Assembly: GCA_964544585.1 (NCBI GenBank)
Contig: CAZJBV010000001.1
Span: forward strand, 45,330-109,329
Direction: 5' to 3'
Origin: an uncultured Gammaproteobacteria bacterium
GTDB lineage: Bacteria > Patescibacteriota > Microgenomatia > 2-02-FULL-39-11
Length of the DNA stretch: 64,000 nucleotides
Program-made: the position numbers and the translations under genes
Part shown: one piece after another, positions 8,219 to 47,179 of the stretch
Layout of the letters: every line of letters starts with the position of its first letter
How positions within the stretch are numbered: position 1 is the first letter of the stretch
The notes under the pieces: model-generated
Seen by the model: the letters and a program-made list of their open reading frames with translations, nothing else
Told to the model about the DNA's origin: nothing
The model's database searches: none

Positions 8219-8245
8219 GGATAGTGGCATTTTTTCCATTTTTTA
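8219..8245 (+). repeat. Intergenic repeat copy 1 (ggatagtggcattttttccatttttta)
   Basis: 24 bp identical to 13579..13602; core GGATAGTGGCA also at 9103 and 10730. Confidence 0.85.
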
Positions 8246-8260
8246 AAACTTTCCACCTTT

Positions 8261-8689
8261 TTAATCTTTGTCTTTTAGAATGGTCAGAAAATCGTTGGGA
8301 GTAACCAGTGTTATTCCTTCATAGGAACTACCAATCTTTCTCATGAGTGGACCATCTCCGGTCACCAAATAATCTACTTGTGCACTTAATGCTGTCGCCA
8401 AGGTAAGATCGTCTTCAGGATGTGTAGCGACTCCTTCAATTTTGACTATTATGGGAGTAATGGTAGCTTCATTTTGTAATAATTCAATAAAAGATATTAC
8501 CTCGTTTGGGCTGACCCGCTGTTGGAAATATGGTTTTTGAAGTGTTCGGGTTAATTCAACCAAAATGTGTTCTGAAACCACAAGATTAAATTGTCCGTCT
8601 CTCCAAGCATCAAGTATTTGACCCGGAGGAGTTGAGGTGGTTAGTGTGCCGGATGCTAAGATATTGGTATCTAATACTGCGAAAACCAT
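8261..8689 (-). CDS. vapC: PIN-domain toxin (VapC-like)
   Basis: MVFAVLDTNIL N-terminus and LVTGD acidic motif typical of PIN nucleases; 4 nt from upstream antitoxin gene. Confidence 0.7.
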   Translation of the reverse strand: MVFAVLDTNILASGTLTTSTPPGQILDAWRDGQFNLVVSEHILVELTRTLQKPYFQQRVSPNEVISFIELLQNEATITPIIVKIEGVATHPEDDLTLATALSAQVDYLVTGDGPLMRKIGSSYEGITLVTPNDFLTILKDKD

Positions 8690-8692
8690 GCA

Positions 8693-8995
8693 TTAATTAC
8701 GATTATCACTTACTCGTTTTTCTTTTCTTACTTCACTAAGTGCATTGTTTACCTCTTTTGCTATCTCTTGTGGAGGAACATTTTTAAATGCTTCCCGGAT
8801 TCGATCTAAAACTTTGAATCGTTCTCTACGCTGTTTCTCAAGCTGTGTAAATCTTTCTAAATCTTCTGCTGATATAACAGCTGCCACCGGAATACCACTC
8901 TTTTTTACCACGACTCTGGTCTGTCCACGAAATATTTTATTAAGCAGTTGGCTCCATTGTTGTCTCACGTCTGAAGATTTCATTGTTTGAGTCAT
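8693..8995 (-). CDS. Phd/YefM-family antitoxin
   Basis: 100 aa; RQQWSQLLNKI...GQTRVVVKKSGIPVAAVISAEDLERF matches Phd/YefM fold; immediately upstream of PIN gene. Confidence 0.65.
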   Translation of the reverse strand: MTQTMKSSDVRQQWSQLLNKIFRGQTRVVVKKSGIPVAAVISAEDLERFTQLEKQRRERFKVLDRIREAFKNVPPQEIAKEVNNALSEVRKEKRVSDNRN

Positions 8996-9100
8996 ATTTA
9001 TACCTCCTGTTCGTACATATTAGTACGAAACTGTACGAAAGTCAAGCTTCGAGTTAGATTATTTGTGTAACAAATTAATAGAGCAATTTTTATTCGAGAT

Positions 9101-9114
9101 CAGGATAGTGGCAA
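9101..9114 (+). repeat. Intergenic repeat copy 2 (caggatagtggcaa)
   Basis: core GGATAGTGGCA. Confidence 0.7.
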
Positions 9115-9124
9115 CGTTTTCTGT

Positions 9125-9304
9125 TTAATTGATCTTCTTTTCCCTGTCATTGTTGATCTTTTTTATTCTTTCTTCAAAATGCTTTCCGTACATGGTACAA
9201 CCTTCTGTTCCGCATTTTATCAAGCCATTTTTATATCTTTCCTCTGAAATTTCTGCATGGCATGTACCAGTACAGACATAAACTTTAGTCATTTTGGAAT
9301 TCAT
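9125..9304 (-). CDS. Small zinc-ribbon protein (59 aa), not in supplied ORF track
   Basis: Manual translation MNSKMTKVYVCTGTCHAEISEERYKNGLIKCGTEGCTMYGKHFEERIKKINNDREKKIN: two Cys pairs CTGTC...CGTEGC; sits between antitoxin and ATPase genes. Confidence 0.3.
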   Translation of the reverse strand: MNSKMTKVYVCTGTCHAEISEERYKNGLIKCGTEGCTMYGKHFEERIKKINNDREKKIN

Positions 9305-9317
9305 ATTAATATGTATT

Positions 9318-10679
9318 TTAATTTAATAATAGTTTTCTCAATAGTGCTTTTTTTTCCATTTCCAATTTAGCTGCAGGAATATGATAGATATTTGATTTAT
9401 TTGCTGACTCTCTCTCCGCGGATTTAGTGATGAGGAATGCAAATGGAGCTTGATGATGTTTTATAAATTGGACTAGTTCTTTTTCATCATCAGGAGTAAT
9501 GCGATCGCTATATTTGACTTCCCATGGTACCTTCATTCCTCCATGTGTTGTAGTTACAAAATCAACTTCATGATTTTGGAAACGAAAAAACTCTACCGGA
9601 ACAGGTAATTGTTTGAGAAAGGAATAAACATATGTTTCGACTAAATTACCTAATGATGATTGTTGGGAAAAATTTGTTGATGTAAGATATACTTTTTTTG
9701 CTGTCCGGCTTGATTTGGCAATTTTTTTTGTTTGATTATGACAAAGGTCGATAAGAAATGCTTTTTTCAACCAATCAATATATGCGCGCGTCGTACGAAT
9801 ATCCACCCCTAAATCTCTGGAAAGATTATCATATAGAAGGAGATTGCCGGAATGCTCTTTCAGATAGGCAAAGATGATTTTGAGAATGTCAGGTCGTTTT
9901 ATAGGAAATGTTTGCGGCAGATCAATCTCTATGATTTTATCTTGAATAGTCTCTAAATATTCATTCGCTTCAGCTTGTCCATATTGATGAATTACGGGTT
10001 GAGGAAATTGTCCTATTCTTAGATATTTCTCAAAGAATGTAGCCATGTATTCAGGAAAAAAGTGGCTATATTTATCTAATTTATCCCCTCTAAAATCGTT
10101 TTCATAAATTTCTTTGTGGGCTTTTTGATCAAGTTTAAGATACTCAGCGAAAGTAAGAGGCATAATTGCAATTTCCTTTAATCTACCGGCCAAACTTTCT
10201 GTCGATCTTTTCCGAATAAATAGTGAGGATGATCCACTAAGGATAAACTTCACATTTTTGGCTGTATCATAGTAAGTCTTAATGATATCTTGCCAGTAAG
10301 GGATAATCTGTATTTCATCTAGAAAAATGAAGGTAGAAGTATCAGTAACGCTCAAAGGAGTATGGAGATAGGAAGTGGCATACGTCTCTAGTATTTGACG
10401 CAATGTATCTGGTTCATTTTTGACAATGGAGCGATCGAAGGAAAAATAAAAAAGATTCCGTGGCGTGATGGATTTATTAAGGAGATGTCCAAGTATTTGC
10501 TTTATGAGAGTACTTTTGCCTACTCTACGTAGGCCGGTCAATGAGATGATCAAATCTTTTTCAAGCCAACGTAGAATTTCTGGGTAGTATGGACGGTGAA
10601 ACCAGGTTGTCTCTTGAGGTCGAAATCTAGGATCAAACCATTGCTGATTTTGATCTCTTAATAATGCTTCTAGATTCAT
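9318..10679 (-). CDS. AAA+ ATPase with DUF4143-type C-terminal domain (COG1373-like)
   Basis: Walker A GLRRVGKSTLIKQ; Walker B IFLDEIQ; paralog of 12331..13512. Confidence 0.7.
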   Translation of the reverse strand: MNLEALLRDQNQQWFDPRFRPQETTWFHRPYYPEILRWLEKDLIISLTGLRRVGKSTLIKQILGHLLNKSITPRNLFYFSFDRSIVKNEPDTLRQILETYATSYLHTPLSVTDTSTFIFLDEIQIIPYWQDIIKTYYDTAKNVKFILSGSSSLFIRKRSTESLAGRLKEIAIMPLTFAEYLKLDQKAHKEIYENDFRGDKLDKYSHFFPEYMATFFEKYLRIGQFPQPVIHQYGQAEANEYLETIQDKIIEIDLPQTFPIKRPDILKIIFAYLKEHSGNLLLYDNLSRDLGVDIRTTRAYIDWLKKAFLIDLCHNQTKKIAKSSRTAKKVYLTSTNFSQQSSLGNLVETYVYSFLKQLPVPVEFFRFQNHEVDFVTTTHGGMKVPWEVKYSDRITPDDEKELVQFIKHHQAPFAFLITKSAERESANKSNIYHIPAAKLEMEKKALLRKLLLN

Positions 10680-33393: not shown

Positions 33394-33518
33394 CTCCTTT
33401 TAGCCATATCCCAGTACTATGCTTACCTCAAGCCGGAGGCTTCCAGCCTCGCGCTCTTGAGGGGCGCAAGTACGGGATTTGCAAGAGTAATACTCGCAAA
33501 GCTCGTAAACTCTTGCAT

Positions 33519-33545
33519 AAAAAAACCCCTCATTTGAGGGGTTAG
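33519..33545 (-). terminator. Intrinsic terminator hairpin inside lysW leader (attenuator terminator)
   Basis: Minus-strand CCCCUC-AAAU-GAGGGG followed by U7 run. Confidence 0.6.
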
Positions 33546-33569
33546 TAGGTCACGAAACGACAACAGAAA

Positions 33570-33632
33570 CTAACCCCTAATAAAAGGGGGTCGCTTCTTG
33601 GGTTCGTTGACAATATAATTTGTTTGTTTCAT
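33570..33632 (-). CDS. Putative 20-aa leader peptide with tandem Lys codons (MKQTNYIVNEPKKRPPFIRG)
   Basis: ATG 8 nt after a TATAAT -10 (leaderless-like); AAG AAG immediately precedes first attenuator hairpin; stop lies inside antiterminator segment. Confidence 0.35.
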   Translation of the reverse strand: MKQTNYIVNEPKKRPPFIRG

Positions 33633-33671
33633 TATGGACTATTATACCAGAGATATTTATCGAGTCAAATT

Positions 33672-34136
33672 TTAATCAATCGAGAGTATTTTGTAAAGGA
33701 TTTTTCCAACCGGCGCCTCTACCTCTACCTTTTCTCCTACCTTCTTTCCCAGAAGGGCTTTGCCCAATGGTGAAGAGTGAGAAATCTTTTTTTGGGTGGG
33801 ATCTGCTTCCCATTCGCCGACTATGGTAAATACGTCTCTTTTGCCATTGAGGTGAAGGGTGACTCTGGAGCCAACGTCTACTTTTGACCTGGAATGGCTG
33901 GAGACTATTTTGGCTTCGTGAAGGATGGTCTCTAGCTCGGCAATTCTGCCGTCGATGAAGCCTAGATCCTGTTTAGCCGATGTGTATTCGCTATTCTCGG
34001 CTAGATCTCCTTGGGAGCGCGCGTTGGCAAGCCGAGAAACTAGTTCCGGCCTTTTTTTATTAAGAAGCTCGTCGTATTCTTTTTTGAGCTCCGTCATGCC
34101 GTCTTTGGTGAGTAATATTTTCTGTATGTTGTTCAT
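33672..34136 (-). CDS. greA: Transcription elongation factor GreA
   Basis: N-terminal coiled coil with LTKDGMTELKKEYDELL, acidic tip, C-terminal FKBP-like domain; 154 aa. Confidence 0.9.
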   Translation of the reverse strand: MNNIQKILLTKDGMTELKKEYDELLNKKRPELVSRLANARSQGDLAENSEYTSAKQDLGFIDGRIAELETILHEAKIVSSHSRSKVDVGSRVTLHLNGKRDVFTIVGEWEADPTQKKISHSSPLGKALLGKKVGEKVEVEAPVGKILYKILSID

Positions 34137-34256
34137 AGTTCGACTTCGCTCACTACAAGTTTTAGGCTAAATAAAAAGACCCCTTACGCATGAATTATTT
34201 GGGAAAGCGCTTGGTGGGTCGAATTATTATAAATATTTTAGCAAATCTTTTTTGGC

Positions 34257-34285
34257 TTGTCAAGACAATCTTGAGGCTATATAAT
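34257..34285 (+). promoter_or_regulatory. Putative sigma70-like promoter for tRNA-Glu (TTGTCA-17-TATAAT)
   Basis: ggcTTGTCAagacaatcttgaggctaTATAATacc about 28 nt upstream of tRNA 5' end. Confidence 0.35.
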
Positions 34286-35915
34286 ACCTACTGAGGCTAA
34301 ATAAAAGCTTTTTGCCGCCATCGTCTAGTGGCCCAGGACGGTACCTTCTCAAGGTACAAATCGGGGGTTCGAATCCCCCTGGCGGTACCCAGTTCCGACT
34401 TGTCGGGGCCGCCCGCAGGGCGGCCCAAGGTTCGCGCGCGTTACCGCGCGCTATTTTGTGGTTGAGAGTCAGGTTCGAGCCGAAGATTTTTTGGGCCAAT
34501 ACCTTTTTCTGGTATAAATCATTGCCCCTTGCGATGTTTGCCGCGCTAGCGGCATCTATAACCCATGTCCGCATGGGTTCGAGCCAAGCATTTTGCGTTT
34601 GTTCAAATGTTTTTACTTTCTCTTCCAGCGTCTTCTTGATATTTAACAGTTCAGCTTTTTTAAAGCGGTACGTTTCTATATCAATTTCCTGATCCAAATA
34701 AGCATCTAGAAGACGCTGTAACTTGATATTAATATTTTCAATTTCCATTTTTTTCATTTGAACAAACGCTCGGCAGGATTGGGCAGTGTCTTTTTCTTCC
34801 TCTTTGAGTTTAACTAACATTCTATTTGCCCAATCCTGACGTAAAGAAACTTTTTGAATAAGGCTGGATAGCTGCCTATCCAGGACTTCTTCGCGAATAT
34901 AAAGTTCGCGGCAAGAAATTGTTTTGGATTTTTTGGTACACCTATAATAAGTATGGCCTTTTTGAATTTCAGCTGTAATCATCATGCCGCAACTACTGCA
35001 GCGAAGAAGCCGGGCAAATGGTTTGGGGATTCTTCCCTTGTCTTTGATATGTTGGGGCTTACTCCTGTCTTTCAAAACCATTTGCACTTTATCAAAAAGT
35101 TTCTTGGAAATGATGGGCTCGTGGATTCCCTCGTATAATTCTCCACCAAACCGAAAGAAACCGACATAAAACGGGTCGGAAAGTACATATTTAATTCTGT
35201 CTTTATGAAGAGGCTTGTTACCTCTTGAGAAAATACCATGACGAGCCAAAAAGTCAGATATATCTTCAAGTCTTGATTCATTTTGGGCATAGATACCAAA
35301 TGCAAGGGAAATGTAGGGTGATTTAAATTTATCAACTACAATTTTCTTAGTCCTGACATTATTTAGATACCCGATGGGTGCCAGACTGGGAAATTCTCCT
35401 TTTCTTACTTTTTGGCGAAGTCCTCTTTTGGTATTTTCAGAGAGGGAATCCACATAGTACTTACTTTGCCCAAACGCAATATTGAGCATAAATTTACCCT
35501 GCGGAGTGGATTCAAACCAGAATTGGGGAAATTTGAGAAACTTGATTTTACCAGTATCAACTAGATAAATAATCCTTCCTCCATCTATACTATTGCGCGC
35601 AAGTCTATCCGGATGCCAAGCCAAGATACCGGCGGCTTCACCTTTTTCAATTCTCTCAATCATAGAATTGAAAACAGGACGGCCGGGAATCTTGGCCGAT
35701 TGTTTCTCAATAAGTTCCTCAATAATGGAAATTGACTCACGTTTGGCAAATTCCCTAAGCTCCGTAATCTGTGCCTCGATAGATAATACCTGTTTATCCT
35801 CTGTATCTGTAGACTTGCGCGCATACAAAAATAATTTTTGCAGAGTTGGTAATTGAGATCTTAAATACTCTTTTGGAGGTCTTGTTATGAGATTGTTGGC
35901 AGGAGTGGTAATCAT
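34260..35915 (-). CDS. Large serine recombinase (resolvase/invertase catalytic domain + recombinase domain + zinc ribbon + coiled coil); 3' end as drawn reads through inverted repeat and antisense tRNA
   Basis: YARKSTDTEDKQ...SIEAQ catalytic Ser region, zinc ribbon CSSCGMM...YYRCTKK, long coiled coil; C-terminal ~70 aa are Ala/Arg/Pro/Gly-rich translation of GC-rich IR and tRNA antisense, so true C-terminus uncertain. Confidence 0.75.
   Translation of the reverse strand: MITTPANNLITRPPKEYLRSQLPTLQKLFLYARKSTDTEDKQVLSIEAQITELREFAKRESISIIEELIEKQSAKIPGRPVFNSMIERIEKGEAAGILAWHPDRLARNSIDGGRIIYLVDTGKIKFLKFPQFWFESTPQGKFMLNIAFGQSKYYVDSLSENTKRGLRQKVRKGEFPSLAPIGYLNNVRTKKIVVDKFKSPYISLAFGIYAQNESRLEDISDFLARHGIFSRGNKPLHKDRIKYVLSDPFYVGFFRFGGELYEGIHEPIISKKLFDKVQMVLKDRSKPQHIKDKGRIPKPFARLLRCSSCGMMITAEIQKGHTYYRCTKKSKTISCRELYIREEVLDRQLSSLIQKVSLRQDWANRMLVKLKEEEKDTAQSCRAFVQMKKMEIENINIKLQRLLDAYLDQEIDIETYRFKKAELLNIKKTLEEKVKTFEQTQNAWLEPMRTWVIDAASAANIARGNDLYQKKVLAQKIFGSNLTLNHKIARGNAREPWAALRAAPTSRNWVPPGGFEPPICTLRRYRPGPLDDGGKKLLFSLSRYYIASRLS
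34314..34387 (+). tRNA. tRNA-Glu (anticodon CUC)
   Basis: Cloverleaf readable: acceptor GCCGCCA/UGGCGGU, D-arm TCGTCTAGTGGCCCAGGACG, anticodon stem GTACC/GGTAC with loop TTCTCAA (CTC), T-arm GGGGGTTCGAATCCCCC; CCA not encoded. Confidence 0.85.
34386..34485. repeat. IR1 left copy: ~100-bp GC-rich inverted repeat starting at the tRNA-Glu discriminator base
   Basis: acccagttccgacttgtcggggccgcccgcagggcggcccaaggttcgcgcgcgttaccgcgcgctattttgtggttgagagtca... reverse-complement of 36106..36200; contains internal palindromes GGCCGCCCGCAGGGCGGCC and GCGCGCGTTACCGCGCGC. Confidence 0.9.
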
Positions 35916-36105
35916 GAGCTAAGGAGTACTATACTTTTTCCTTCAAAATTTTCAATATGACTTAATGAATCAAACATAAGCAAAAAATTCTTTTTGTTCG
36001 TTTGCACGTAAAAAATGCTGATGCATTTTTCAGTGTAAAGGCAAAGTTTCCCCCACTATTTAGTGGGGGACAAATAACATCGCAAGGGGCAATTAATTAA
36101 AATTC

Positions 36106-36200
36106 TTCGGCTCATGACTCTCAACCACAAAATAGCGCGCGGTAACGCGCGCGAACCTTGGGCCGCCCTGCGGGCGGCCCCGACAAGTCGGAACTGGGTA
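36106..36200. repeat. IR1 right copy (inverted), abutting IR2
   Basis: Reverse complement matches 34386..34471 perfectly, then 4-5-nt indel, then gagccgaag matches again. Confidence 0.9.
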
Positions 36201-36387
36201 AGCCTTTACAGTTACGCTCGAAACTATTTTATAAATAATTCTTAGTATTATAAATAAAATGTTGCGATGAGGAAAAGGGGTAAAGGGGAAAAGGAATCAT
36301 CGCAACATAAACCTTATTGCTCGGCCGCTTCGCGGCCTCGCATTATCCCAGGCCTCTCCTTCTCATTCTCTCTTTGGGAAATTTTCG
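36199..36387. repeat. IR2 left copy: ~190-bp inverted repeat bounding the cargo module
   Basis: Reverse-complement of 45440..45629 essentially perfect over ~190 bp; internal palindromes (gttgcgatga...tcatcgcaac; GGCCGCTTCGCGGCC). Confidence 0.9.
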
Positions 36388-36569
36388 AAATTTTTTAAAG
36401 CCTTCTTATAGGTCGCTAACGAGAATATTTATTAGAAAAAGGAGAATATTTTGTCAGAAATATCATGAAAATAGCAAAATACTAGCTACCATATAAAACT
36501 GTCAACAAACGCATAGCTTCATAATTATTTTTACTGTCTTTATCTTTCCAAAGTTTTTCGGTCATAAAA

Positions 36570-39500
36570 TCAACTGGCATTATTTTTAAGCCATGTTTGT
36601 TTAAAGTCGTAGTATTTAGGATTTCTCTCCATGAGCCCAGCAAACAATTTTTCTACTTGCTCTTTGTGGGTTTTAATAGAAGTTAAGTATTCGACTGCAA
36701 CATCAAGGTCGTTTGCAATTAACAGATCAGTTGGATAATCAACGAGTTTTTTAAACCAACGTAAAAATTCTTGGTTGCCTTTTACCTGCGCAATTTTTAC
36801 CAATATTTTTCCATTATAGAAGAATGGCCACCAATACATGTCAGGAAGATTATCTTTAGTATAGTTATCTTTAAAATACTGATACTCCGTTTCAATACAT
36901 TTCTTCCAAAGGTCAAAACACACATCAAAATGTTCTTCAATATAATCCTCAACAAAACGATAGATATTCTCAAAAGTCCTGTGGTCGTAGGTTACTGTCA
37001 TATACTCAAGATAATAAGCGGCGAGTTTTACAGCATCTTCAAACTTCGGTGTATCTTTTACCTCATGGGGTATACGTACCATTTGCCAAGCAAAAATTTG
37101 CTTAATTTCTGGATCACCACTTTTTACCAGACTAATCAATAATTTCTTAAAGGGTCTGTCATCAAACTTTCCTAGTGGTTCCCAGTCCTTTGGCCAGTCC
37201 TTGAAAGATTGTATTCTGTATTCAGCAAAAAATATGTATAATGGTGCTGCTTCGCTTAATACATCTGCTAAATATGATTCATGTCCTCTTTGTTTGTCTT
37301 TTTTAGGATACTCATTTTTAAGAAATATTTGTAAAACTTCAAATGCCTTCTTTTGATCTATACTTCTCATGTAAGTAAACACCATCGCCAAATGTTTCAT
37401 AATGGCAGGTAATTCGTGATTAACCAAATCACGTAGCATCAAAAAAGCTAAATCCTCTATTTTCTTAGAAATTTCAACTTGCAGAAATCTCTCTTTTCTA
37501 TTATCTGGAAGCACAGTGTTACGATTTTTTACTAACTCTAAAAGGGGAATACAAGATTGTAATCGTACATAATAATTTTTATCCTTAGTTAGCTTTTCAA
37601 CTAGAGGTAGAATTGCAGGTATATGTTTTCTTCCATAAAGAGTCGCAAATTTTTGTAAAACCCACGCGCAGTAACCTCTGACAGAACCAATTGATAAGTC
37701 ATCTTCACCGCCTATAATTTTTTGATGTCTATTAAAATTACCTTCTGGATCATCAAAGTAATTCTCAAGTATAGGATCGCTATCTTTTATAAAAATATTT
37801 AGTATGTAAAGAGTCTCATCAAACAATTTTACTTCGGCCAGTTTTTCAGCAAACTGTACAATTTGCTCTCTTGAGTGTCGGTTCGTAATTCTTTCTTCAG
37901 TTTTTGATATGTCATCGCCTAGGTTTTGTAAGAACGGGTATACAAAATCTTTATAAACCCCTTGGATTACTTCTTTGTTTTCTTTTGGTAAATCGTTTAT
38001 TGAACTGCAAATTAGAATTTGTTGATTTAATGTAAGAGTTCTTGAAGAGCCCACTTCTTTTAAAATGCTTACTCCAATACCCAGGTTTTTGACTATAATC
38101 TTGGCAAGATTTTTAGCCACCTCCCATGTCTCCCAATCGTCATCCTTCTTAACAAATTCATCGCTTGTGATGTAACTTATAAAAATCTTAACACCCTCAT
38201 CAAAAGTTTCTGGATTATCTAAAAGTTTAGAGATATTACCCATTACATTAAACGAACCTATGGTTTGTCTTTTGTGATATTCGGGATTCGTTATCCAGCT
38301 TGCGATAATAGCAGCTGCTTCTTTGTGCCTTTCTGCCGCCAAATCTGAAGTTATTTGCTCAACAAAAACGTTAGCCGATAAATTATTATATTCATCAAGA
38401 CTGACTTTTATTAGCGCCCACTTTTGCTCTTTTGTATAATCACCTCTCAATTCTTGGAATATTAAGTCTGCTTTCCATGGAATACCTTTTCTCATTCTTA
38501 CGAAGTCGCTTAAAATGTCAAAGGCTTCGGAGCTATGTTTACCACCTTTATATTCTGCAAAAATAACTGGAATTGAAGCACGATTGAGGAAATCTGGCTT
38601 ATTACTAGAAACATCACTTATTTTCCTAGCTATACAATTTTTGATAATAAACTTCCAATTCTTTTCACTATTTTTGTATAGTTCTTGCAAAGCTGGTCTG
38701 ATAATGTATCTTACAAAGTGGTTGTCTAAGATCGAAAAATTACTACCTGATTGAGAAATTCCGCTACCTGCTAAATCCCATCCATCAAACTTCCATTTCA
38801 AGCGAAACCTACCATAAAAATTATTGTAATGCTTCACACAAAGCTCTTTAAACCAAATAATCCTTTCTTCCGGATTTTCTATTACATAATCTCTAAAAAT
38901 CTCGAAAATAGCGGTAGGGGTATAATGCCAGTACTCCCCATGATCTTCTATAAGATTGAAAGTTTTACTTAGGTATTCAATAATTTCTTCTTTAAGTTTT
39001 CTATCTTTTGTATCTTGATATAGTTTTGTTAATAATTTACTAATTTTCTCTCTTTCCCATTTATCGTCTCTATGTCTTGATTTTTTTTCGGTATAGAAAA
39101 AGTCACTGATACTCGGACTAAATAATTTCTTAATCACTTCAAAAACTTTGCGATTAAGCTTAGGATTTACATCTAAAATTTTTTGACACAGTCGTGCAAT
39201 ATCAGTTTTGATAAATTCTTCTCTAAAGAAGTTGTAACTTCCGTCTTCCAGCACTTTATCTGCAAAATCCAGCGAGTATTCTTGATTATCTTTTGTAGGT
39301 AAGTTGTTTTCAAATATTTGAAATAGGTGCACAGAAAATGCGCTCTTAACTGTAGCCTCCCATAGATTATCCCATTGACTTAAATTTAAGTTTTGCTTGT
39401 CTTTGAGTCTCATCAACGCGTAGTAAAATTCCGAAGGGAGATTAGAAAGTTCAGAAATCTTATTGTTAGCCCATTTTTTCTTCTCTGGATTTTCTATAGC

Positions 39501-40178
39501 TTCAATAAGCCCTTTGATGTCTTTTTCGGCAGTTTGTCTCTCTTTTTCATAACCTGCGTCTTCAAGTATTTGAGTTTTTCTTTTATCTAGTTTCTTCAAA
39601 AAAACCTCGGCTGTTAAAGTCTTCCCTGCTGCCGATCCATCGTACACTTCCTGTTTAACAAGATGATCTCTTATTTCCTCCAGTGTATGTTTTGGGACCC
39701 AAACCTGAAGAAGTTTTGCGACTAAAAGCTCTACTATTTTTTCACTCATTTCTTTTGGAACCTCCCAAATTTTTAACTGTGCCAAAAGTTCAAAATGATA
39801 ATCTTTAAAATTGTGTGGTTTTTTGGCGAGCCTCTCTCTTACTCGATCTTGAAAGTATTTATAATTTTCAATATCGTTCTTAGCAGATCTATTTACCCCT
39901 TTGCAAATAATCACTATTTCATCCTGTTTGGTTACTTGGCCGTGCTCGTGAATTTTATCGAGAATATCTCTAATATCTGCGTAGTTTAAAATTGAGTCTT
40001 TTGATTCACAAATTATTTTTCGGCCATCCTCAAAGACCAAATAAAAATCTTCAAGCTTGTCACCTTCAAAACCAATATATCTAAAATCTGAACGTTTAAC
40101 ATATTGAAGAAACAGCGACATAGCTGCCCAAGCTTGGGCATTAACTCCTTTAACGTTATATTGACCCTGCTTACTCAT
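36570..40178 (-). CDS. 1202-aa protein: N-terminal restriction-endonuclease-like (PD-(D/E)xK) domain followed by ~1000 aa of alpha-helical (HEAT/ARM-like) repeats
   Basis: N-terminal LEDFYLVFEDGRKIICESKD (D...ExK); remainder helical repeat composition (e.g. LPLVEKLTKDKNYYVRLQSCIPLLELV); start overlaps stop of upstream 209-aa gene (ATGA). Confidence 0.5.
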   Translation of the reverse strand: MSKQGQYNVKGVNAQAWAAMSLFLQYVKRSDFRYIGFEGDKLEDFYLVFEDGRKIICESKDSILNYADIRDILDKIHEHGQVTKQDEIVIICKGVNRSAKNDIENYKYFQDRVRERLAKKPHNFKDYHFELLAQLKIWEVPKEMSEKIVELLVAKLLQVWVPKHTLEEIRDHLVKQEVYDGSAAGKTLTAEVFLKKLDKRKTQILEDAGYEKERQTAEKDIKGLIEAIENPEKKKWANNKISELSNLPSEFYYALMRLKDKQNLNLSQWDNLWEATVKSAFSVHLFQIFENNLPTKDNQEYSLDFADKVLEDGSYNFFREEFIKTDIARLCQKILDVNPKLNRKVFEVIKKLFSPSISDFFYTEKKSRHRDDKWEREKISKLLTKLYQDTKDRKLKEEIIEYLSKTFNLIEDHGEYWHYTPTAIFEIFRDYVIENPEERIIWFKELCVKHYNNFYGRFRLKWKFDGWDLAGSGISQSGSNFSILDNHFVRYIIRPALQELYKNSEKNWKFIIKNCIARKISDVSSNKPDFLNRASIPVIFAEYKGGKHSSEAFDILSDFVRMRKGIPWKADLIFQELRGDYTKEQKWALIKVSLDEYNNLSANVFVEQITSDLAAERHKEAAAIIASWITNPEYHKRQTIGSFNVMGNISKLLDNPETFDEGVKIFISYITSDEFVKKDDDWETWEVAKNLAKIIVKNLGIGVSILKEVGSSRTLTLNQQILICSSINDLPKENKEVIQGVYKDFVYPFLQNLGDDISKTEERITNRHSREQIVQFAEKLAEVKLFDETLYILNIFIKDSDPILENYFDDPEGNFNRHQKIIGGEDDLSIGSVRGYCAWVLQKFATLYGRKHIPAILPLVEKLTKDKNYYVRLQSCIPLLELVKNRNTVLPDNRKERFLQVEISKKIEDLAFLMLRDLVNHELPAIMKHLAMVFTYMRSIDQKKAFEVLQIFLKNEYPKKDKQRGHESYLADVLSEAAPLYIFFAEYRIQSFKDWPKDWEPLGKFDDRPFKKLLISLVKSGDPEIKQIFAWQMVRIPHEVKDTPKFEDAVKLAAYYLEYMTVTYDHRTFENIYRFVEDYIEEHFDVCFDLWKKCIETEYQYFKDNYTKDNLPDMYWWPFFYNGKILVKIAQVKGNQEFLRWFKKLVDYPTDLLIANDLDVAVEYLTSIKTHKEQVEKLFAGLMERNPKYYDFKQTWLKNNAS

Positions 40179-40180
40179 AA

Positions 40181-40810
40181 CTAGATGACCCCACTTTCTA
40201 CCTCGGAAGATATTGGTAGTGTAATACCGTTTATATTGGTATCTTTATGTGAAATAATTTTTTGACAAAATTCTTCAAAGTTATCGCAAGAGAAAACATA
40301 AGTTTTACCGATCACCGGACTAAAGTCATGTATTAGTGTGCGCACAACTTCACTTAGTTTATTCAGATCAAAAACTCTAAAATTTCTGAATTTTTTATCT
40401 GCAAATACCTCTGAAGCAAGATAATCATTTGCATCTCTGTTAATGTTGCCGTTACAGATAAAGTAGAATTCTTCAATGTATACTTTTAATGAAAAATCTA
40501 TAGGAGAGGAGAGGGGAATATCTAAAGCTTCTTCTATGGCTCCCTTAAATGATCTAATGTCATTGTTTCCGCTTTTTGTTATATCACCAGCTTTTATAAA
40601 AACGCAACAATGTCGAGCTTTTTTGAATAAGTCTTTATAAGAAAAGTATAAATCCTTACCCTTTTCGTTCCGGCCATGCATATCAACAACTGGATGTGCA
40701 CCCATAGCTTTTAATAAAGGGATGAGTATTTTTATCCTAAGATCGTCTTCGAGAAGCTCTCCTAATAGTGTCTGAACATCTTTAACCATCTGTATTTTTT
40801 TCAACCACAT
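40181..40810 (-). CDS. Mrr-cat-like (type IV restriction endonuclease catalytic domain-like) small protein
   Basis: LLKAMGAHPVVDMHGRNEKGKD...CVFIKAG resembles Mrr catalytic core (LLEAMGY...D...QCK); translationally coupled to 1202-aa gene. Confidence 0.4.
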   Translation of the reverse strand: MWLKKIQMVKDVQTLLGELLEDDLRIKILIPLLKAMGAHPVVDMHGRNEKGKDLYFSYKDLFKKARHCCVFIKAGDITKSGNNDIRSFKGAIEEALDIPLSSPIDFSLKVYIEEFYFICNGNINRDANDYLASEVFADKKFRNFRVFDLNKLSEVVRTLIHDFSPVIGKTYVFSCDNFEEFCQKIISHKDTNINGITLPISSEVESGVI

Positions 40811-41047
40811 TGGTTTCTTCCTGCCTAAGGCCGTAGAGTTTATAAACTAACTCATCAATCTGCCGTTCGTGGCCGAGTGCTTGGTGCTTATCTTTTTCCA
40901 AGATGGTTTTCTTCCAGTCAGATGATAGTGCTTATATATAGGCTTGTCAATTGATCTAAAAAGAGGTAAAAGGATTCAGTATGAAATTCTCATGAGGTAT
41001 AATAATCAAATATAGTAAAGAGTTTAGTTTTACTAATATTTATTACA

Positions 41048-42475
41048 ATGATCGAAGCGACATTATCTCGGGGTCCACTACCTGATCAGTTCGGTCAACC
41101 AGAGCGAAGCGTTGCTTCTCCCAAAATAATATTTCTGCATGGATATACTTCATCCCCACAAAAAGATTGGTATCCAACTATTTCCAGGCAATTAACTACC
41201 ATGGGTATTGATCATGACATACCTGAATTACCAGGAGGAGAACACCCAAATCCACAAGAATGGATAGAAGCGATAGATAAAGAAGTAAAGTCTTTGGATG
41301 GTCGACCCTTTGTTCTTGTAGGTCATAGTTTAGGAGCAAGAGCTGCTCTTTTGTATCTTAAAGACAAAAAACCTGCAAATCTTGAAGGGTTATTTCTTGT
41401 ATCACCCCCAGCTAATCGAACAGAGGATTACAATGTAAAAGGTTCCCAGGGATTCGGTGATTTTTTCAAAGAAAAAATTGATATTTCTGAAATTAAGCCG
41501 TTGATAAAAAGAAAACCAGCAGTAATACACTCACCTACTGATCCAGATGTTCGAGTTGAGCAAGCAAGGGAATTAGCTGATGAATTAGGTGCCAGATTTA
41601 TTAGCATTCCCAATCGTGGCCACTTTAATGATGAATTTCATCCAGAAATGGATGCAGAGGAAATTTTAGATGTAGTTTATCATCAATTAAATAGTACACC
41701 ACTTCCTAAAGAATTTGAAGATAAAAATGTTCACTTTGGTATTTGGGGAGTAATTGGAGGTAATAATGATAGAAAATTAGACAGTTTGGAACCATTTAGG
41801 CAAAATATAGAAGCCAAAGGTATAGAAGCACTTAGAAAAATTACTGATGCTATGCCGATACATGATTTAGAGGTGGGGATTTATGATACTACTCGCCATA
41901 TTATCAGAGAAGAAGGAATGGGCGGATTTGCATGGGGTGATCATAATCGAGCTATGATTTTTTTTAATACGGAGTTGCCTGATGATGTGATAAAAAACGC
42001 AATAGAAAAATATATGGTTAGAACAGTGGCACATGAAGTGGATCATATAATGAGGATGAAAGAAGTTGGATTGCCCACCACACTTTTTAAGTCATTTATT
42101 TTAGAAGGACTCGCACAGCATTTTTCGGAAGAAATTGAGCCTGGTGATCATCCTTTGTATGCGGTTGCATTGCAGGATCCTGCACAAATCCATAATTTAC
42201 TTTTGAAGGCTCAACCAGAGTTTGATATAGACCTTACGGAGGAAGACTATAAAGAAAATGGCAGATATGATCAGTGGTTTTTTGGTAGAGGTACGACTGA
42301 AATTCCCAGATGGACTGGGTATACATTAGGGTATCAGATAGTTGGTGAATATTTAAAAGATCATCCTGGTTCTAAACCATCTACTGTTTATAATGTACCA
42401 GATGAAGACTTTCGTCCTTATATTGAAAAGGTTCTGGCAACAACAGAACAAAGTATACAGAAAAATAAAGATTAG
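41048..42475 (+). CDS. Fusion: RBBP9/YdeN-type alpha/beta serine hydrolase + HExxH zinc metallopeptidase-like domain
   Basis: N-terminus IIFLHGYTSSPQKDWYP with GHSLG nucleophile elbow; C-terminus VAHEVDHIMR (HExxH) plus downstream EGLAQHF. Confidence 0.55.
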   Translation: MIEATLSRGPLPDQFGQPERSVASPKIIFLHGYTSSPQKDWYPTISRQLTTMGIDHDIPELPGGEHPNPQEWIEAIDKEVKSLDGRPFVLVGHSLGARAALLYLKDKKPANLEGLFLVSPPANRTEDYNVKGSQGFGDFFKEKIDISEIKPLIKRKPAVIHSPTDPDVRVEQARELADELGARFISIPNRGHFNDEFHPEMDAEEILDVVYHQLNSTPLPKEFEDKNVHFGIWGVIGGNNDRKLDSLEPFRQNIEAKGIEALRKITDAMPIHDLEVGIYDTTRHIIREEGMGGFAWGDHNRAMIFFNTELPDDVIKNAIEKYMVRTVAHEVDHIMRMKEVGLPTTLFKSFILEGLAQHFSEEIEPGDHPLYAVALQDPAQIHNLLLKAQPEFDIDLTEEDYKENGRYDQWFFGRGTTEIPRWTGYTLGYQIVGEYLKDHPGSKPSTVYNVPDEDFRPYIEKVLATTEQSIQKNKD

Positions 42476-42756
42476 TTTTTAAAAAACTGAGAAAATCGCA
42501 ACTTATATAAACTCTCCAAGAAATCTGATCCGGCATAGCCAGCCAATAGAGACATTCTCCAATCTGCGTTGGCAATAAGGCCAGCCATTTGGCCTGTAAT
42601 TATAGAGACAATTATGGTAATTGCAAAATATTTCCACTGAAACTTAAATTTTTCGGGATCGAATTCTTTAGCTTTGGTGATACCGACTACTGCACGGACT
42701 AGACCTCCCATACCTCCCGCCAGAAATTGAAACGCTGTTATTTGAAAATCCATCAA
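42472..42756 (-). CDS. Small 2-TM membrane protein (holin-like, speculative)
   Basis: 94 aa with two hydrophobic helices and charged C-terminus. Confidence 0.3.
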   Translation of the reverse strand: MMDFQITAFQFLAGGMGGLVRAVVGITKAKEFDPEKFKFQWKYFAITIIVSIITGQMAGLIANADWRMSLLAGYAGSDFLESLYKLRFSQFFKN

Positions 42757-42780
42757 TAATCACCTCCTATTTATACTATT

Positions 42781-43227
42781 TTAAGAGATATTTTTACTGT
42801 AAATAATATAATCCTGATGGTCATGATGATTGAAATGTTCTCCGGTTTTTACAAACCCGAGAGATTCATAAAACTTGGATGTTCTTTTAGTTTTTGAAGT
42901 ATTGAGAAATATTTTATGGGCTTTGAGTGATTGAGCTATCTTTATAGCTTCTTTTACAAGTTCGGTTCCAATACCCTGTCTGTGCTTTTCGTGTTTCACG
43001 ATTAGGCTTTCAATTCTGACTACTCCTGCCATGAGAGATAATTCTAAAAAACCTACCATTGTCCCGTTTTCTGTTGCTTTTAGAATCTTTCTTTGCTTTG
43101 TCCAATCTATTTTGGTACCAAACTCCTCCAGGTCTGCCAGTGCCCATTCTTTCTTTTGAAATTCTTCTATCTCTTTGGTGGTTTGATTGATTTCCTGTAT
43201 GGATATCATATGTTTTGTTTTGACCAA
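42781..43227 (-). CDS. GNAT-family N-acetyltransferase
   Basis: Acetyl-CoA binding motif HRQGIGTELV and GNAT fold length (148 aa). Confidence 0.75.
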   Translation of the reverse strand: MVKTKHMISIQEINQTTKEIEEFQKKEWALADLEEFGTKIDWTKQRKILKATENGTMVGFLELSLMAGVVRIESLIVKHEKHRQGIGTELVKEAIKIAQSLKAHKIFLNTSKTKRTSKFYESLGFVKTGEHFNHHDHQDYIIYSKNIS

Positions 43228-43766
43228 ATTCCTAACTTTTTTGATTTTGCTTCTTTTTCTGCAGATAATAATTGTTGCTGATAAATAAGTGGTTTTCTTT
43301 TTTCGTATATTGTAACTTTGGCTAATCCTCTTTTTGCCAACTCAATCGCAAGATTTTTGTCACTAATAATAATGTATGCAAGAATTCTTCCGAATCTGTC
43401 TGATTTATACTCATCGTATTCAATATTTACTTTTTTTCCTTCAACGAGTCTTTTAGCAAATTCTGTAGACTCTTCATCAAAAGGTTGTCCGTGATCCGGA
43501 GTATTTACTCCGACAAGTCGGACGATTTGTCCGTTTTGTAATTCGAGAGTATCCCCATCTATGACTCTTTTGATTTTGGCTTCTTTGGGAAACTCTATGA
43601 CTTGACTGGAGTTTATAATAGGCTGGTTTTCAATCGCATCTTTAATCTCACTTTCATACTTAGTCCCTGCAAAAAATGAGGAGAATGATAAAAGCAGGGC
43701 AAGAGGAATAAGGACATATTTGTTTTTATTTGACTTTTTGTTTTGGGGTTTGGATTTTGGTTTCAT
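43206..43766 (-). CDS. Thermonuclease / staphylococcal nuclease (SNase) homolog, secreted
   Basis: N-terminal signal anchor; SNase core VIDGDTLEL...VRLVGVNTPD...RFGRILAYI. Confidence 0.75.
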   Translation of the reverse strand: MKPKSKPQNKKSNKNKYVLIPLALLLSFSSFFAGTKYESEIKDAIENQPIINSSQVIEFPKEAKIKRVIDGDTLELQNGQIVRLVGVNTPDHGQPFDEESTEFAKRLVEGKKVNIEYDEYKSDRFGRILAYIIISDKNLAIELAKRGLAKVTIYEKRKPLIYQQQLLSAEKEAKSKKLGIWSKQNI

Positions 43767-44853
43767 AAAGTGTATTTTGCCCCACCTCGAATACCCTGTT
43801 GTTTGAGTAATCCCTTCTTTTCCAGTTCAGTCAGATAGTTAGTGGCAGTGCTTTGAGATACTCGACATAATCTTTGCACATCGGTGTTGGTTATGGTTCC
43901 CGTTTCTTTGATAAAGAGCATGATTTTATCTAAGTTTTTCTGTCTTTTGTTGAGTCTTTTTGCGTTGGCTTTCTGGCGAAGAGAGGATATGCCTTCCTTC
44001 GCTGAAGCTTCGGCGGCTAAAGGAGATTGGGGTAATGGGGGAGATGGGGGAATTTGGGGAGTAACCGCAGGAGATGGCTTCGGTGGGACGATGGGTTCTA
44101 TATTTATTTTTGGTTCATCCTGCAGGGACTGGTCTAATTGGGAGGGAGAGGTGTTTCCATGCAAGATATCTCCAAACGAAGATGGCTTGGGAAGAATAGA
44201 AGGAGCAGAAGAAATAGGAGGATTTGATGAAGATGGCGGATTTTCTTTCGCTAGGATCTCGCCGAAAGAGCTTTTGGGAGAGGTGGGAGGCTTAATTTCT
44301 TCTGTTTTTTGAGAATTGCCATTGGCCAATGGAGCGTTCTGGACTGGTTTTGGTGGCTCAGTCTTGATATTGGCCAAGTCGGGAGGAACTTGAAATGTTG
44401 TATTTATAGATGCACTATCTGACGGGCCGGATTGCACTTGAGACGGTGCAATTGGAGTAGTAGTGACAGAAACGGGAGGTGTAGAAATGTCGTTAGGAGA
44501 TGAAGGAGATTGGGGTAATGGGGGAGATATGGGAGAGTCGGAATCGTCCGATGAGGACGGATTGGCCAGATTGGAGGAAGATGTAATCTCGGTGGGTTTC
44601 GGCTCAATCGATGGTGGAGCAACATGGCCAGAATCCGTAGCCGTCTGATTGGTCAAGTCTGGATGAGCCGAACTATTATTGGCCAATGGAGTTTCTACTG
44701 ATTGGCCAGATGTTGATGCTTCCTTGGGAGCCTCATTGGCCATTTTGGTGGAAATTGGCCAAGTGGGATCAGATGTATTGGCCAATTGTGAATCGGCCAG
44801 CTTATCCTGAACTTGGCCAATAATACTTCCTTGCTGGAACTGATCATCAGCCA
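43763..44853 (-). CDS. Pro/Ser-rich low-complexity protein with C-terminal winged-helix DNA-binding domain
   Basis: Likely start MADDQF (44853) rather than ORF-track start; C-terminus ITNTDVQRLCRVSQSTATNYLTELEKKGLLKQQG is wHTH-like; internal ~30-bp direct repeats encode PISPPLPQSP repeats. Confidence 0.45.
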
Positions 44854-44975
44854 TATTAAATCCAGTATACAACAAAGTAAATGGCCAAGTGATTGGCCAA
44901 CACAAAAAGCAACATGGCCATTTTGGTGGAAATTGGCCAAGTGGAAAAAATAATTGGCCAAGTAATAATCGCCAG
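44680..44975. repeat. Dense cluster of ~13 ATTGGCCAA (TGGCCA palindrome) motifs incl. a 28-bp direct repeat
   Basis: TGGCCA occurs about 13 times in ~300 bp spanning the 5' end/upstream region of the wHTH gene; ccattttggtggaaattggccaagtgg repeated at 44738 and 44917. Confidence 0.8.
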
Positions 44976-44999
44976 TGGTCACCCACCCGTGCAATGCTC

Positions 45000-45420
45000 T
45001 CATGATGACACCGATGGAATACAAAGAGGGGTCATCGCACGGGGGGTGAAGGAATTTCTCCCCCGAGTGCCACGGGCACACCGGAAGCACGGGGTAGGGG
45101 GACCCCCGTGAGTGCAAACCCAGAGGACGAAGTCCGACTGGATGCACGAACGGAGGGAGACCCCCCGTGGGAAGTGATTGGAAAATACCTCTGAGGGAAC
45201 CAGGCTCTATAGCACTACGGGCACGGCAGGGGGTACGTGCGAAAAACCTATGACCTGATATAACAGAGAAACTCTCACAGTCTCCAAAAGCGAACCCCAC
45301 TGGCGACATATATAAATGTATATTTGGGAGTACCTTGTTGTTGTCCGCGGATGGGATGGGTGCCCATAAAAAATCGCTGAGGCGATTTTTCAGGGTAAAG
45401 GCCAAGGACAACTACAAATA
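45000..45420. other. GC-rich, hairpin-dense, apparently non-coding ~400-nt region (candidate structured RNA or cis-acting DNA site) ending in a bidirectional terminator-like hairpin
   Basis: Local GC far above window average; many stable stem-loops (GTGCCACGGGCAC; CACGGGG...CCCCGTG; GTGCA...CCAG..GGACGAAGTCC..CTGG..TGCAC); overlapping ORFs have implausible Pro/Gly/Trp/His/Cys-rich composition; aaaatcgctgaggcgatttt hairpin at about 45370-45395. Confidence 0.35.
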
Positions 45421-45439
45421 ATTTCCCCTTACCTTATAA

Positions 45440-45629
45440 CGAAAATTTCCCAAAGAGAGAATGAGAAGGAGAGGCCTGGGATAATGCGAGGCCGCGAAGC
45501 GGCCGAGCAATAAGGTTTATGTTGCGATGATTCCTTTTCCCCTTTACCCCTTTTCCTCATCGCAACATTTTATTTATAATACTAAGAATTATTTATAAAA
45601 TAGTTTCGAGCGTAACTGTAAAGGCTTAC
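45440..45629. repeat. IR2 right copy (inverted)
   Basis: cgaaaatttcccaaagagagaatgagaaggagaggcctggg...tagtttcgagcgtaactgtaaaggcttac is the reverse complement of 36199..36387. Confidence 0.9.
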
Positions 45630-47179
45630 AAAGTCTCTGCGTCTCTTTTAGTTATAACCGTAAATTTATAGGGGCTAGATTTGTTTGAAAAGTAGGCAGT
45701 ATTGGGTAATTGTTCAATATCCTGACCAAAATAGTACTTTAAAATCAAGCGAAAAGTATTTACTGGAGTTATTTCTGGGTATATTAGTTTATCCCCTCCG
45801 AGAGGTAAGTAATAAGCATTGAGGATGGCCATTTTTTGTCTCTTTTCTTCTTCTGTTGCATTTTTCCAATCAAAATTCAGTTCACCTTTTCTGTATGCTT
45901 CCGGGTATGGTCCTTCATCGCCCTGAATAATTATAATGGGTGGATTTTCTTTTGATTTTTCCATGATCGTGTTTACCAATTCCTGTATTTTTTTATTGGC
46001 GAATACTATTTGTTCCTCATAGTTTCTTTTTTCACTTCTTTTATCCGTTTCCTCCTGACTTAAGCAATTTCCATCTTTGTCAAAGACATATGGTTCATGC
46101 GTTAGGAGAAAATGAGCAAATGTAAACGTAGGTTTTGAAATATCAGGCACTTTGGCAATTTCGTCAAACTTGTAGTAAGGTCTTTTGCAGTGAGTGAGCC
46201 GGCTATTAAAAAGCGGGATATTTAGCTTTATTGTAAGTGGATGAAATAATGATTTGCTATACACAATCTCTGAAAACTCAGAGAGCGAAGGCAAATTAAT
46301 ATTTTTATCTGCATTTCTATTCCAGGCCGTTGGACCCCACCATGAGCCGGCATGGATATAGAGATAACCATTTGATTTTAGAAATCTTAAGACAGAATAA
46401 TCCTCAATAAGATCAATAAGGGGTCTAATATCATCTGATTGTCTACCTAAAGATTTTATTAGATCGTCATGATATTCCATATTCAAAGATGAGGATAATG
46501 ATAATTGAGTTTGGGTATAATTTGCCCATGATTTTTGGGGAATAGAAAAATTGCTATCCTGTAGAAACTTTATAAATTGAGAATTGTCAAACTGGTACAC
46601 ATTTTCTAAAATATCGCTTCTTCCATAACGGTCGAATACAAAATAGTAAATATCAGGAGGATTTTTCTGATTTGAGCTGGTCACCTGCCAGGTATATGTT
46701 TTTTCATTCACAGCATAATTCAAAGAATATAATATGTCATATTTTATTATTTCGAAAAGAGATGGAATTAAGAGTGCAATTCCAATAAAGTTAGATATCA
46801 GCATTATCGATATTAGATTGGATTTACTCTTAAGGATTAGGTAGCTTGTTAAGAAAATTATTGCTATTGCAGCAATAAAACCAGGGGTTTGTTTTCCTTG
46901 GAGAAGACTATCTAAAGGTGACTGCCGAAGCAAATCAAAAATATGCCCGTAGCTTAGAATGACTAGTGCTGAGAGGGAAACAATAAGTGATGATTTATAA
47001 ATATTCTTTATAAATATATTCAGAAGAGCAAAGACAAACAAGGTACAGGCCACAATAAAAAATAGAGGCAAAAAAATGCCTGAAATGTGAATTCCTGTAA
47101 TGTTGTGGCTGTAGATAAAAAAGATAGGATAGGAAGAAATAAGAATGGGAAGGAGGATGGGAAATAAATTTTTTCTCAT
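45626..47179 (-). CDS. Membrane-anchored sulfatase/alkaline-phosphatase-superfamily protein (LTA synthase / phosphotransferase-like)
   Basis: N-terminal ~5 TM helices; extracytoplasmic sulfatase-like domain (YYFVFDRYGRSD...); 517 aa. Confidence 0.55.
   Translation of the reverse strand: MRKNLFPILLPILISSYPIFFIYSHNITGIHISGIFLPLFFIVACTLFVFALLNIFIKNIYKSSLIVSLSALVILSYGHIFDLLRQSPLDSLLQGKQTPGFIAAIAIIFLTSYLILKSKSNLISIMLISNFIGIALLIPSLFEIIKYDILYSLNYAVNEKTYTWQVTSSNQKNPPDIYYFVFDRYGRSDILENVYQFDNSQFIKFLQDSNFSIPQKSWANYTQTQLSLSSSLNMEYHDDLIKSLGRQSDDIRPLIDLIEDYSVLRFLKSNGYLYIHAGSWWGPTAWNRNADKNINLPSLSEFSEIVYSKSLFHPLTIKLNIPLFNSRLTHCKRPYYKFDEIAKVPDISKPTFTFAHFLLTHEPYVFDKDGNCLSQEETDKRSEKRNYEEQIVFANKKIQELVNTIMEKSKENPPIIIIQGDEGPYPEAYRKGELNFDWKNATEEEKRQKMAILNAYYLPLGGDKLIYPEITPVNTFRLILKYYFGQDIEQLPNTAYFSNKSSPYKFTVITKRDAETL

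Follow-up and report, generated by a model that had tools for sequence, protein, structure and literature searches.

The 64,000-nucleotide stretch of contig CAZJBV010000001.1 analysed here (the window) holds an 11.2-kb integrated element at positions 34386–45629, which abuts a tRNA-Glu gene on its left and carries an intact, inverted copy of its own attachment site (attP) beside the promoter of its large serine recombinase (LSR) gene. An earlier note, made from the letters of this DNA, had described a GC-rich inverted repeat at the 3′ end of the tRNA-Glu and taken it for a recombination or att-type site, or a structured terminal repeat; the att-type reading is supported, as the left copy is attL, and attL, the internal attP and attR can be aligned as chimeras of half-sites around the trinucleotide TAC. 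Our best explanation, to which we give a probability of about 0.78, is that the left repeat is the attL of an 11.2-kb element moved by the LSR, that attP lies in the 3′ end of the recombinase gene, and that the element has kept a second, inverted attP module. The repeat is therefore no stand-alone site, since it is the 3′ end of the recombinase open reading frame (ORF), and its right copy is the internal, intact, inverted attP rather than the other end of the element, the true right end being attR at 45629. Two features were absent from the earlier account of the repeat, namely its coding nature and a second, 190-nt perfect inverted repeat.

The inverted repeat encodes the 3′ end of a recombinase gene

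The integration target, which forms half B′ of the empty site attB, is a tRNA-Glu gene with anticodon CTC (34314–34387, plus strand; Rfam tRNA model, 61.5 bits; ARAGORN, 34313–34391). A repeat search of the window yielded an inverted repeat, IR1, whose arms at 34386–34471 and 36115–36200 are 100% complementary over 86 nt and continue less exactly, interrupted by indels, as far as 34538 and 36076 (inverted pairs I15, 93%, and I2, 92%), reaching about 150 nt with the degenerate ends included. The 100-bp inverted repeat reported earlier is thus present, its length being revised to 86 nt of perfect match, beyond which some 65 nt more are degenerate. A 47-nt core of IR1 occurs exactly twice in the window, where 100 shuffles gave an expectation of 0. 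The repeat starts at T34386, which is position 72 of the tRNA and lies one base ahead of the discriminator A34387, where the start had been placed; its mate ends in ...GTCGGAACTGGGTA at 36200, as had been stated. The high GC content that had been reported was likewise found (0.69 at 34350–34449 and 0.62 at 34400–34499, in surroundings of about 0.35), as were both nested palindromes, GGGCCGCCC-GCA-GGGCGGCCC at 34406–34426 and GCGCGCG-TTAC-CGCGCGC at 34434–34451.

The left arm of IR1, which we call X (34386–34471, minus strand), is both the element side of attL and the 3′ coding end of the recombinase gene, as seen from the perfect repeat, its translation and the homology of the C-terminal region in relatives. 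The gene body, with X up to the core, occupies 34389–35915 (minus strand), and the degenerate inner extension of the arm (34472–34538, minus strand) supplies its codons for ...NIARGNDLYQKKVLAQKIFGS. A promoter-like site, TTGAAA-16-TATAGT, lies just upstream of the ATG (35928–35955, minus strand; 10/12 matches in a consensus scan). The ORF as called comprises 551 codons on the minus strand, from 35915 to 34260; it meets no stop in the left arm, where it encodes ...FGSNLTLNHKIARGNAREPWAALRAAPTSRNWV, and continues through the antisense strand of the tRNA. The right arm is the X half of the internal attP copy, according to the repeat search and a three-way alignment of the att sites (36076–36200, plus strand; degenerate over 36076–36114 and perfect from 36115). 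Read on the plus strand, it gives the peptide of the left arm again, after which come SLYSYARNYFINNS and a stop codon. This tail (36201–36245, plus strand; in ORF 36114–36245) is in frame with X and, in the present orientation, lies apart from the recombinase body.

A second inverted repeat marks the right end of the element

The second inverted repeat, IR2, comprises 36198–36387 and 45440–45629, two arms of 190 nt with 100% identity, and begins at the last 3 nt (GTA) of IR1. Repeat search and alignment identify this point of overlap (36198–36200) as the core of the internal attP. The proximal arm (36198–36387, plus strand) consists of the core, the conserved 14-codon tail with its stop, and a non-coding segment, Y, that holds a hairpin at 36262–36308. 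The distal arm (45440–45629, minus strand) has Y, the tail and the core TAC (45627–45629), and is attR, the right end of the element; its outer end reads ...GGCTTAC, then the junction, then AAAGTCTC, with host sequence from 45630. At attL the common core TAC covers 34386–34388, tRNA positions 72–74, and both the alignment and the overlap of IR1 with IR2 place the crossover in or at this core.

From left to right, the element is therefore arranged as tRNA-Glu, core and X′ (attL); the recombinase body; an inverted X-core-tail-Y module; 9 kb of cargo; and Y′, tail′ and core against host DNA (attR). The three-way alignment showed that attL is the tRNA joined to the left half of attP, and attR the right half of attP joined to host DNA, and the same pattern of half-site chimeras was observed in all the complete elements, the one in the window and 12 more, which measure 3.4–11.2 kb. 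Across these 13 elements, the common cores measure 2–10 nt and always include the complement of the discriminator, N73′, with no single dinucleotide fitting all loci. At 14 related loci the second inverted repeat abuts the first and its outer end is exactly core plus tail, beyond which lies unrelated host DNA, often with a terminator. The expected empty site of the tRNA-Glu locus would read ...CCCTGGCGGTAC joined directly to AAAGTCTCTGCG, and the half-site that the host flank contributes to attB is not conserved.

Several further observations concern these junctions. The distance between the motif TCGAAC and the core is 4 nt greater in the tail arm than in the tRNA arm; attP and attB of LSRs are known for an offset of the zinc-ribbon motif, and the spacing of TCGAAC recalls such an offset, which we note as a lead only. 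The Y hairpin, at 36262–36308 and again at 45512–45558, has a 10-bp stem (GTTGCGATGA...TCATCGCAAC) and a 27-nt purine-rich loop, GGAAAAGGGGTAAAGGGGAAAAGGAA, and both hairpin and loop are conserved in the closest relative of the window element, at locus L095. On the host side of attR, a sulfatase-like ORF (45626–47179, minus strand) takes its stop codon from two core bases and one element base (45626–45629). In two related loci, L122 and L136, the host flank outside attR resembles the X arm of the element (11/17 and 12/17 positions, or 16/22 and 17/22 with the core), where few positions match elsewhere; this X-like flank may have been left behind by a previous occupant of the site.

The same design recurs at tRNA genes of 14 specificities

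The survey of relatives drew on 80 loci from genomes and 80 from metagenomes; 172 recombinase copies, at 168 loci, were classified. Most of these copies, which come from bacteria of the candidate phyla radiation (CPR), share the design found in the window, and 113 of the 172 are adjacent to tRNA genes, of 14 amino-acid specificities. Where both flanks are available, almost all loci show this inverted repeat, 70–180 nt long, whose outer end always reads ...TGG-N73′-N72′, the complement of N72-N73-CCA of the tRNA, whichever tRNA that is; near-identical X sequences were found at Gly, Ile, Val and Leu tRNAs. The TGG of X restores CCA in most relatives, and in the window it reads GGG, giving a tRNA gene that ends ...TA-CCC. 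The earlier note had allowed that the GC-rich sequence could be a conserved trailer of tRNA-Glu, present in related genomes with no recombinase. In the 168 loci it was never found 3′ of a tRNA without one, and since it moves with the recombinase to tRNAs of 14 specificities, it is no conserved tRNA-Glu trailer.

All three arrangements predicted by an element with a spare, inverted attP were observed. The recombinase faces the tRNA, as in the window, at 73 loci verified on both sides; it faces away, with the tRNA joined to the upstream arm, at four (L021, L042, L049 and L133); and both arms are joined to tails, as expected of a free form, in L097, L100, L098 (where the two tails differ) and L156 (which has a terminal inverted repeat of 476 nt). 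The tRNA-facing arrangement is commoner by about 10 to 1. Arms of the repeat evolve in concert, with a median identity of 99.2% within a locus, compared with 88% to the nearest other locus, which implies that the two arms continue to exchange sequence.

One locus, L102, consists solely of the cargo known from the L097 element and has inverted Y arms at its borders. Both ends of the L097 contig fall in a single repeat copy, 77 nt from each other, and L097 and L102 together are consistent with a 13.1-kb circle whose two repeats measure at least 354 nt, which is not closed. L100 and L156 also fit a circle with twin repeats, again with none closed, as the assembly breaks at repeats. We rejected contig ends as evidence of flipping because any repeat longer than the k-mer of the assembler breaks contigs.

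Two loci are of interest in their own right. L101 (a 9.7-kb contig, 1–9724) has several recombinase genes and fragments, among them a 911-aa ORF resembling two fused recombinases, with at least five pairs of 80–110-nt perfect inverted repeats between them; the observation extends to the proteins P0004, P0006, P0009, P0011 and P0045. It appears that elements insert into, or recombine with, each other's sites. In the Nomurabacteria locus L051, the tRNA cluster in which the element resides is followed, after about 0.8 kb, by a group I intron match (6953–7185; Rfam, 78 bits).

The recombinase and its detachable tail

By its domain content the enzyme is a large serine recombinase, with the Pfam domains Resolvase, Recombinase and Zn_ribbon_recom. 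The catalytic domain with the serine nucleophile matches PF00239 (E=2.9e-22), and its motif YARKSTD contains an S35 that is invariant in 23 homologues; PF07508 and PF13408 are also present, together with four invariant cysteines, and AlphaFold2 predicts long helices at 367–446, after the zinc ribbon. Joined to the tail, the protein would have about 524 aa and the C-terminal domains of an LSR. In the AlphaFold2 model of a tail-type relative, a confident helical domain follows the coiled coil, and the tail forms a terminal helix of moderate confidence.

The family is large, with 7,888 protein-cluster matches at E≤1e-10; among the matches listed with a source name, most are from CPR/Patescibacteria, at 60–76% identity. 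Identity to any characterised or solved LSR is at most 28%, as it is in plasmid and phage collections, and viral contigs hold only distant relatives (≤45% identity), which lends no support to a phage origin. Most homologues have C-termini of the G[FILV]EP type, which are translations of the antisense T-arm of a tRNA, and a minority end in xLYxxARTYFxxN-stop, the tail that stands beside the right arm in the window. Within the 120 closest protein clusters (P0001–P0120), the ORF continues into antisense tRNA in 92 and closes with the tail in at least 13; the antisense-tRNA C-termini of the 92 are a systematic artefact of gene calling.

The tail is conserved, in frame and with its stop, after the distal arm in about 50 loci. 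Its Leu and Arg codons vary synonymously, and the entropy at the three codon positions is 0.96/0.65/1.14, which together indicate that the tail is translated at some stage of the life of the element.

Hairpins within X

The GC-rich 9-bp palindrome within X (34406–34426) can form a hairpin whose structure is conserved across the family. Among 39 loci, 84% of its positions are paired, compared with 66% in shuffles, there are 53 double-change cells compared with 14, and slid controls reached 35–52%; these compensatory changes indicate that selection acts not just on the reading frame but also on the nucleic acid. Next to it, a consensus scan found a terminator-like hairpin, GCGCGCGTTACCGCGCGC followed by TATTTTGTGG, 3′ of the tRNA (34434–34461, plus strand), and its minus-strand mirror at 36152–36125, facing the cargo. 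This feature is at most weakly general in the family, with a run of at least four T after the hairpin in the direction of the tRNA at 12 of the 39 loci, a frequency on which we rejected the hairpin as a general tRNA terminator; a terminator role may exist as a minor, lineage-specific possibility. Rfam scans of 33500–37000 returned the tRNA as sole match and no other RNA family, and scans of 12 related loci left the second repeats without a match, so a known structured RNA was rejected as an identity for the repeat.

Proposed mechanism

The anatomy described above suggests how the element would move. With its parts in the order X, short core, 14-codon tail and Y, the attP within the recombinase gene would recombine with a tRNA gene in the 3′ acceptor end, at the discriminator base or immediately beside it. 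X would then come to abut the tRNA, and the tail and Y would land at the far side as attR. As attP is part of the gene's own 3′ end, integration would take the conserved tail off the recombinase, leaving an ORF that continues into antisense tRNA. In the integrated element, the second X-core-tail-Y copy, inverted and directly upstream of the recombinase promoter, pairs with attL as IR1 (X with X) and with attR as IR2 (tail-Y with tail-Y).

Excision between attL and attR would yield a circle with a complete recombinase gene, and this free form would probably contain two long inverted repeats, with the recombinase in one of the segments between them and the cargo in the other. An exchange between the two arms of IR1, by host homologous recombination or by the recombinase itself, would flip the recombinase segment and re-join body and tail. 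The tail-less, tRNA-fused arrangement that dominates in assemblies may, in this scheme, be a locked or low-activity state.

A bolder version would make the enzyme a self-editing integrase. Integration would remove its C-terminal helix and lock the element, and a flip at the spare site would re-arm the enzyme, whether carried out by host RecA, and hence coupled to DNA damage, or by the integrase itself. The enzyme would recognise the generic shape of the tRNA 3′ acceptor and T-arm together with the discriminator, and so enter almost any tRNA gene while restoring CCA. We regard this version as tentative, and think it rather more probable that it fails in at least one of its parts than that it holds.

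Points against the element and alternative explanations

A number of observations weigh against an LSR-moved element with a spare attP, or against parts of that account. In L117 the three sites share N73′N72′ only, and in L136 the shared core stops before N72′; because these cores differ, the exact crossover dinucleotide is not fixed by alignment. The empty attB of the tRNA-Glu site had 0 matches in JGI metagenomes. In the reconstructed attB, the sulfatase-like host ORF would run 14 codons into antisense tRNA-Glu, so either integration may have shortened this host protein or the right flank may have been rearranged. No circular contig was closed, and contig ends inside repeats prove neither a circle nor flipping. 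L001 and L015 show no internal copy within 3.6–4 kb, and about eight recombinase copies lie at non-tRNA sites. For the tail, whose role in activity is putative, AlphaFold2 predicts no more than a terminal helix (predicted local distance difference test, 55–72), and an exact look-up of the re-joined window recombinase in the protein collection found no match. Finally, canonical LSRs do not recombine attL with attP, so that flipping driven by the enzyme would be non-canonical.

The alternative that survives best is a resident invertible switch, in which the recombinase inverts the IR1 arms and thereby toggles its own C-terminus, and perhaps transcription of the tRNA or cargo, as a form of phase variation, the 11-kb block being ordinary chromosome. 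The homogenised arms and the presence of both orientations among relatives fit such a switch, as does the position of a crossover-type core at the outer ends of long inverted repeats, which is also where the cix sites lie in the 0.6-kb repeats of the phage P1 C segment. A resident switch is hard to reconcile, however, with near-identical cassettes that occupy tRNA genes of 14 kinds, and non-tRNA sites too, in many CPR phyla, with a third site, attR, that bounds variable cargo and has unrelated host DNA beyond it, or with forms that have no tRNA on either arm; moreover, the protein is an LSR with a zinc ribbon and coiled coil, and not of the Hin/Gin type. We consider this explanation unlikely.

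Still less probable is a transposon of about 1.8 kb, similar to an insertion sequence, that uses the IR1 arms as terminal inverted repeats and inserts beside tRNA genes. Such a unit would explain a recombinase gene set between inverted repeats of 86–150 nt, with the gene end inside one of them, and many relatives do occur on contigs of 1.6–2 kb, but assembler breaks at repeats account for these short contigs, and there are no target-site duplications. Unlike an insertion sequence, the element has outside its right arm not target DNA but the conserved, in-frame, protein-selected tail with its stop, which is repeated 9 kb away at 45440–45629. The least probable explanation, that the GC-rich sequence is chiefly a structured RNA or terminator trailing the tRNA and its duplication incidental, can draw on the consensus terminator after the tRNA, the covarying first hairpin and the T-runs at 12 of 39 loci, but this sequence is never seen without a recombinase, keeps an open reading frame in every member, has no Rfam match and lacks a generally conserved terminator, which may be a secondary function and would leave the repeat unexplained.

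Cargo of the element

Between the IR2 arms (36388–45439), ORF, Pfam and PADLOC analysis gave genes for unknown proteins of 1202 aa and 209 aa, a serine hydrolase/DUF2268 fusion, a 94-aa membrane protein, a GNAT protein, an SNase nuclease and a 407-aa winged-helix-turn-helix (winged-HTH) protein. A PADLOC search of the cargo for defence systems returned an SNase-type match only. The SNase, 94-aa and ~410-aa genes are common to the window element and the L095 element, and in these two elements the backbone cargo genes lie in opposite orientations relative to the recombinase. The genes for the 1202-aa protein, which has a weak HEAT-repeat match, and the 209-aa protein (36570–40810, minus strand) match no Pfam or PADLOC family; the L097 element has a similar pair of one large and one small gene (1132 aa and 165 aa) in reversed order.

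Just inside the distal repeat, about 320 nt (45020–45340, minus strand) are GC-rich and seemingly non-coding, with an RNA fold z-score of −2.75 and no Rfam match. Upstream of the 407-aa winged-HTH gene, at 44880–44990, there are about four copies of a TTGGCCAAT-type motif (CTTGGCCAAT repeats), and the equivalent spot in L102 has about six repeats of the (G)TTGTGG type. Together, the GC-rich stretch, the motif copies and the 407-aa protein resemble an origin with iterons and an initiator-like protein, and the element may replicate as an episome.

Discussion

Full-text literature searches did not find a description of this family. Few mobile elements or genetic tools have been characterised in CPR bacteria, and the recombinase family described here appears to be among their commonest integrative elements. 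A serine integrase with a universal tRNA 3′-end target, a single conserved half-site and a rebuilt CCA would be a candidate integration tool for CPR bacteria and possibly for others. An attP within the integrase gene, combined with an inverted spare, suggests a recombination product that switches its own enzyme off and on; if the self-editing version were true, these elements would constitute a widespread family of CPR/Patescibacteria episomes with directionality control not based on a separate recombination directionality factor. Irrespective of mechanism, most database entries of the family carry C-termini from antisense tRNA, an annotation artefact worth correcting.

Comparison with known systems

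The crossover-type cores at the outer boundary of long inverted repeats, and an inversion that would swap a protein C-terminus, liken the element to the serine-invertase switches Hin, Gin and Cin. Hin and Gin are small (~190 aa), have a C-terminal HTH, need an enhancer and Fis, and swap the ends of tail fibres, whereas the CPR protein would have about 524 aa with LSR C-terminal domains and the swapped end is the recombinase's own.

The inferred free form invites comparison with the yeast 2-micron plasmid (Flp/FRT), in whose circle each of two long inverted repeats carries a recombination site. The CPR circle would likewise have two inverted repeats, of about 300–480 nt, with the site of the recombinase, and two unique segments, one of them encoding the recombinase. 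Flp belongs to the tyrosine recombinases, and its plasmid, in which the repeats serve to amplify copy number, does not integrate; the CPR element, in contrast, uses a serine recombinase and integrates, and may be circular and able to replicate.

Closer in its consequences for the integrase gene is the SSV1 type of ‘suicidal’ tyrosine integrase of archaeal viruses and plasmids, in which attP is reported to lie in the integrase ORF and integration into a tRNA gene to split the gene (PMC7253208, PMC8371274). The CPR element shares the attP within the integrase ORF, the tRNA gene target and the split on integration, with an unrelated class of enzyme: the SSV enzymes are archaeal tyrosine recombinases, whereas the window protein has serine-recombinase Pfam domains only. 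The SSV split is reported to leave two large gene fragments, whereas the CPR element loses only a tail of 13–15 codons, and no inverted spare site is described for the SSV type.

The closest likeness is to the LSRs themselves, such as those of phiC31, Bxb1, A118/LI, SPbeta (SprA), TnpX and CcrAB, which have the same Resolvase catalytic and Recombinase domains and a zinc ribbon with a long coiled coil, and whose elements likewise lie between an attL and an attR, each a chimera in which parts of attP and attB meet at a very short core. Apart from its low identity to characterised or solved members (≤28%), the CPR enzyme differs from known LSRs in targeting the 3′ acceptor end of essentially any tRNA gene, a habit that, to our knowledge, belongs to tyrosine integrases, and in using an attB whose host-flank half-site is not conserved. 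The CPR element, furthermore, has its attP inside the 3′ coding end of its own recombinase gene, so that integration alters the protein, and it keeps a second, inverted attP module.

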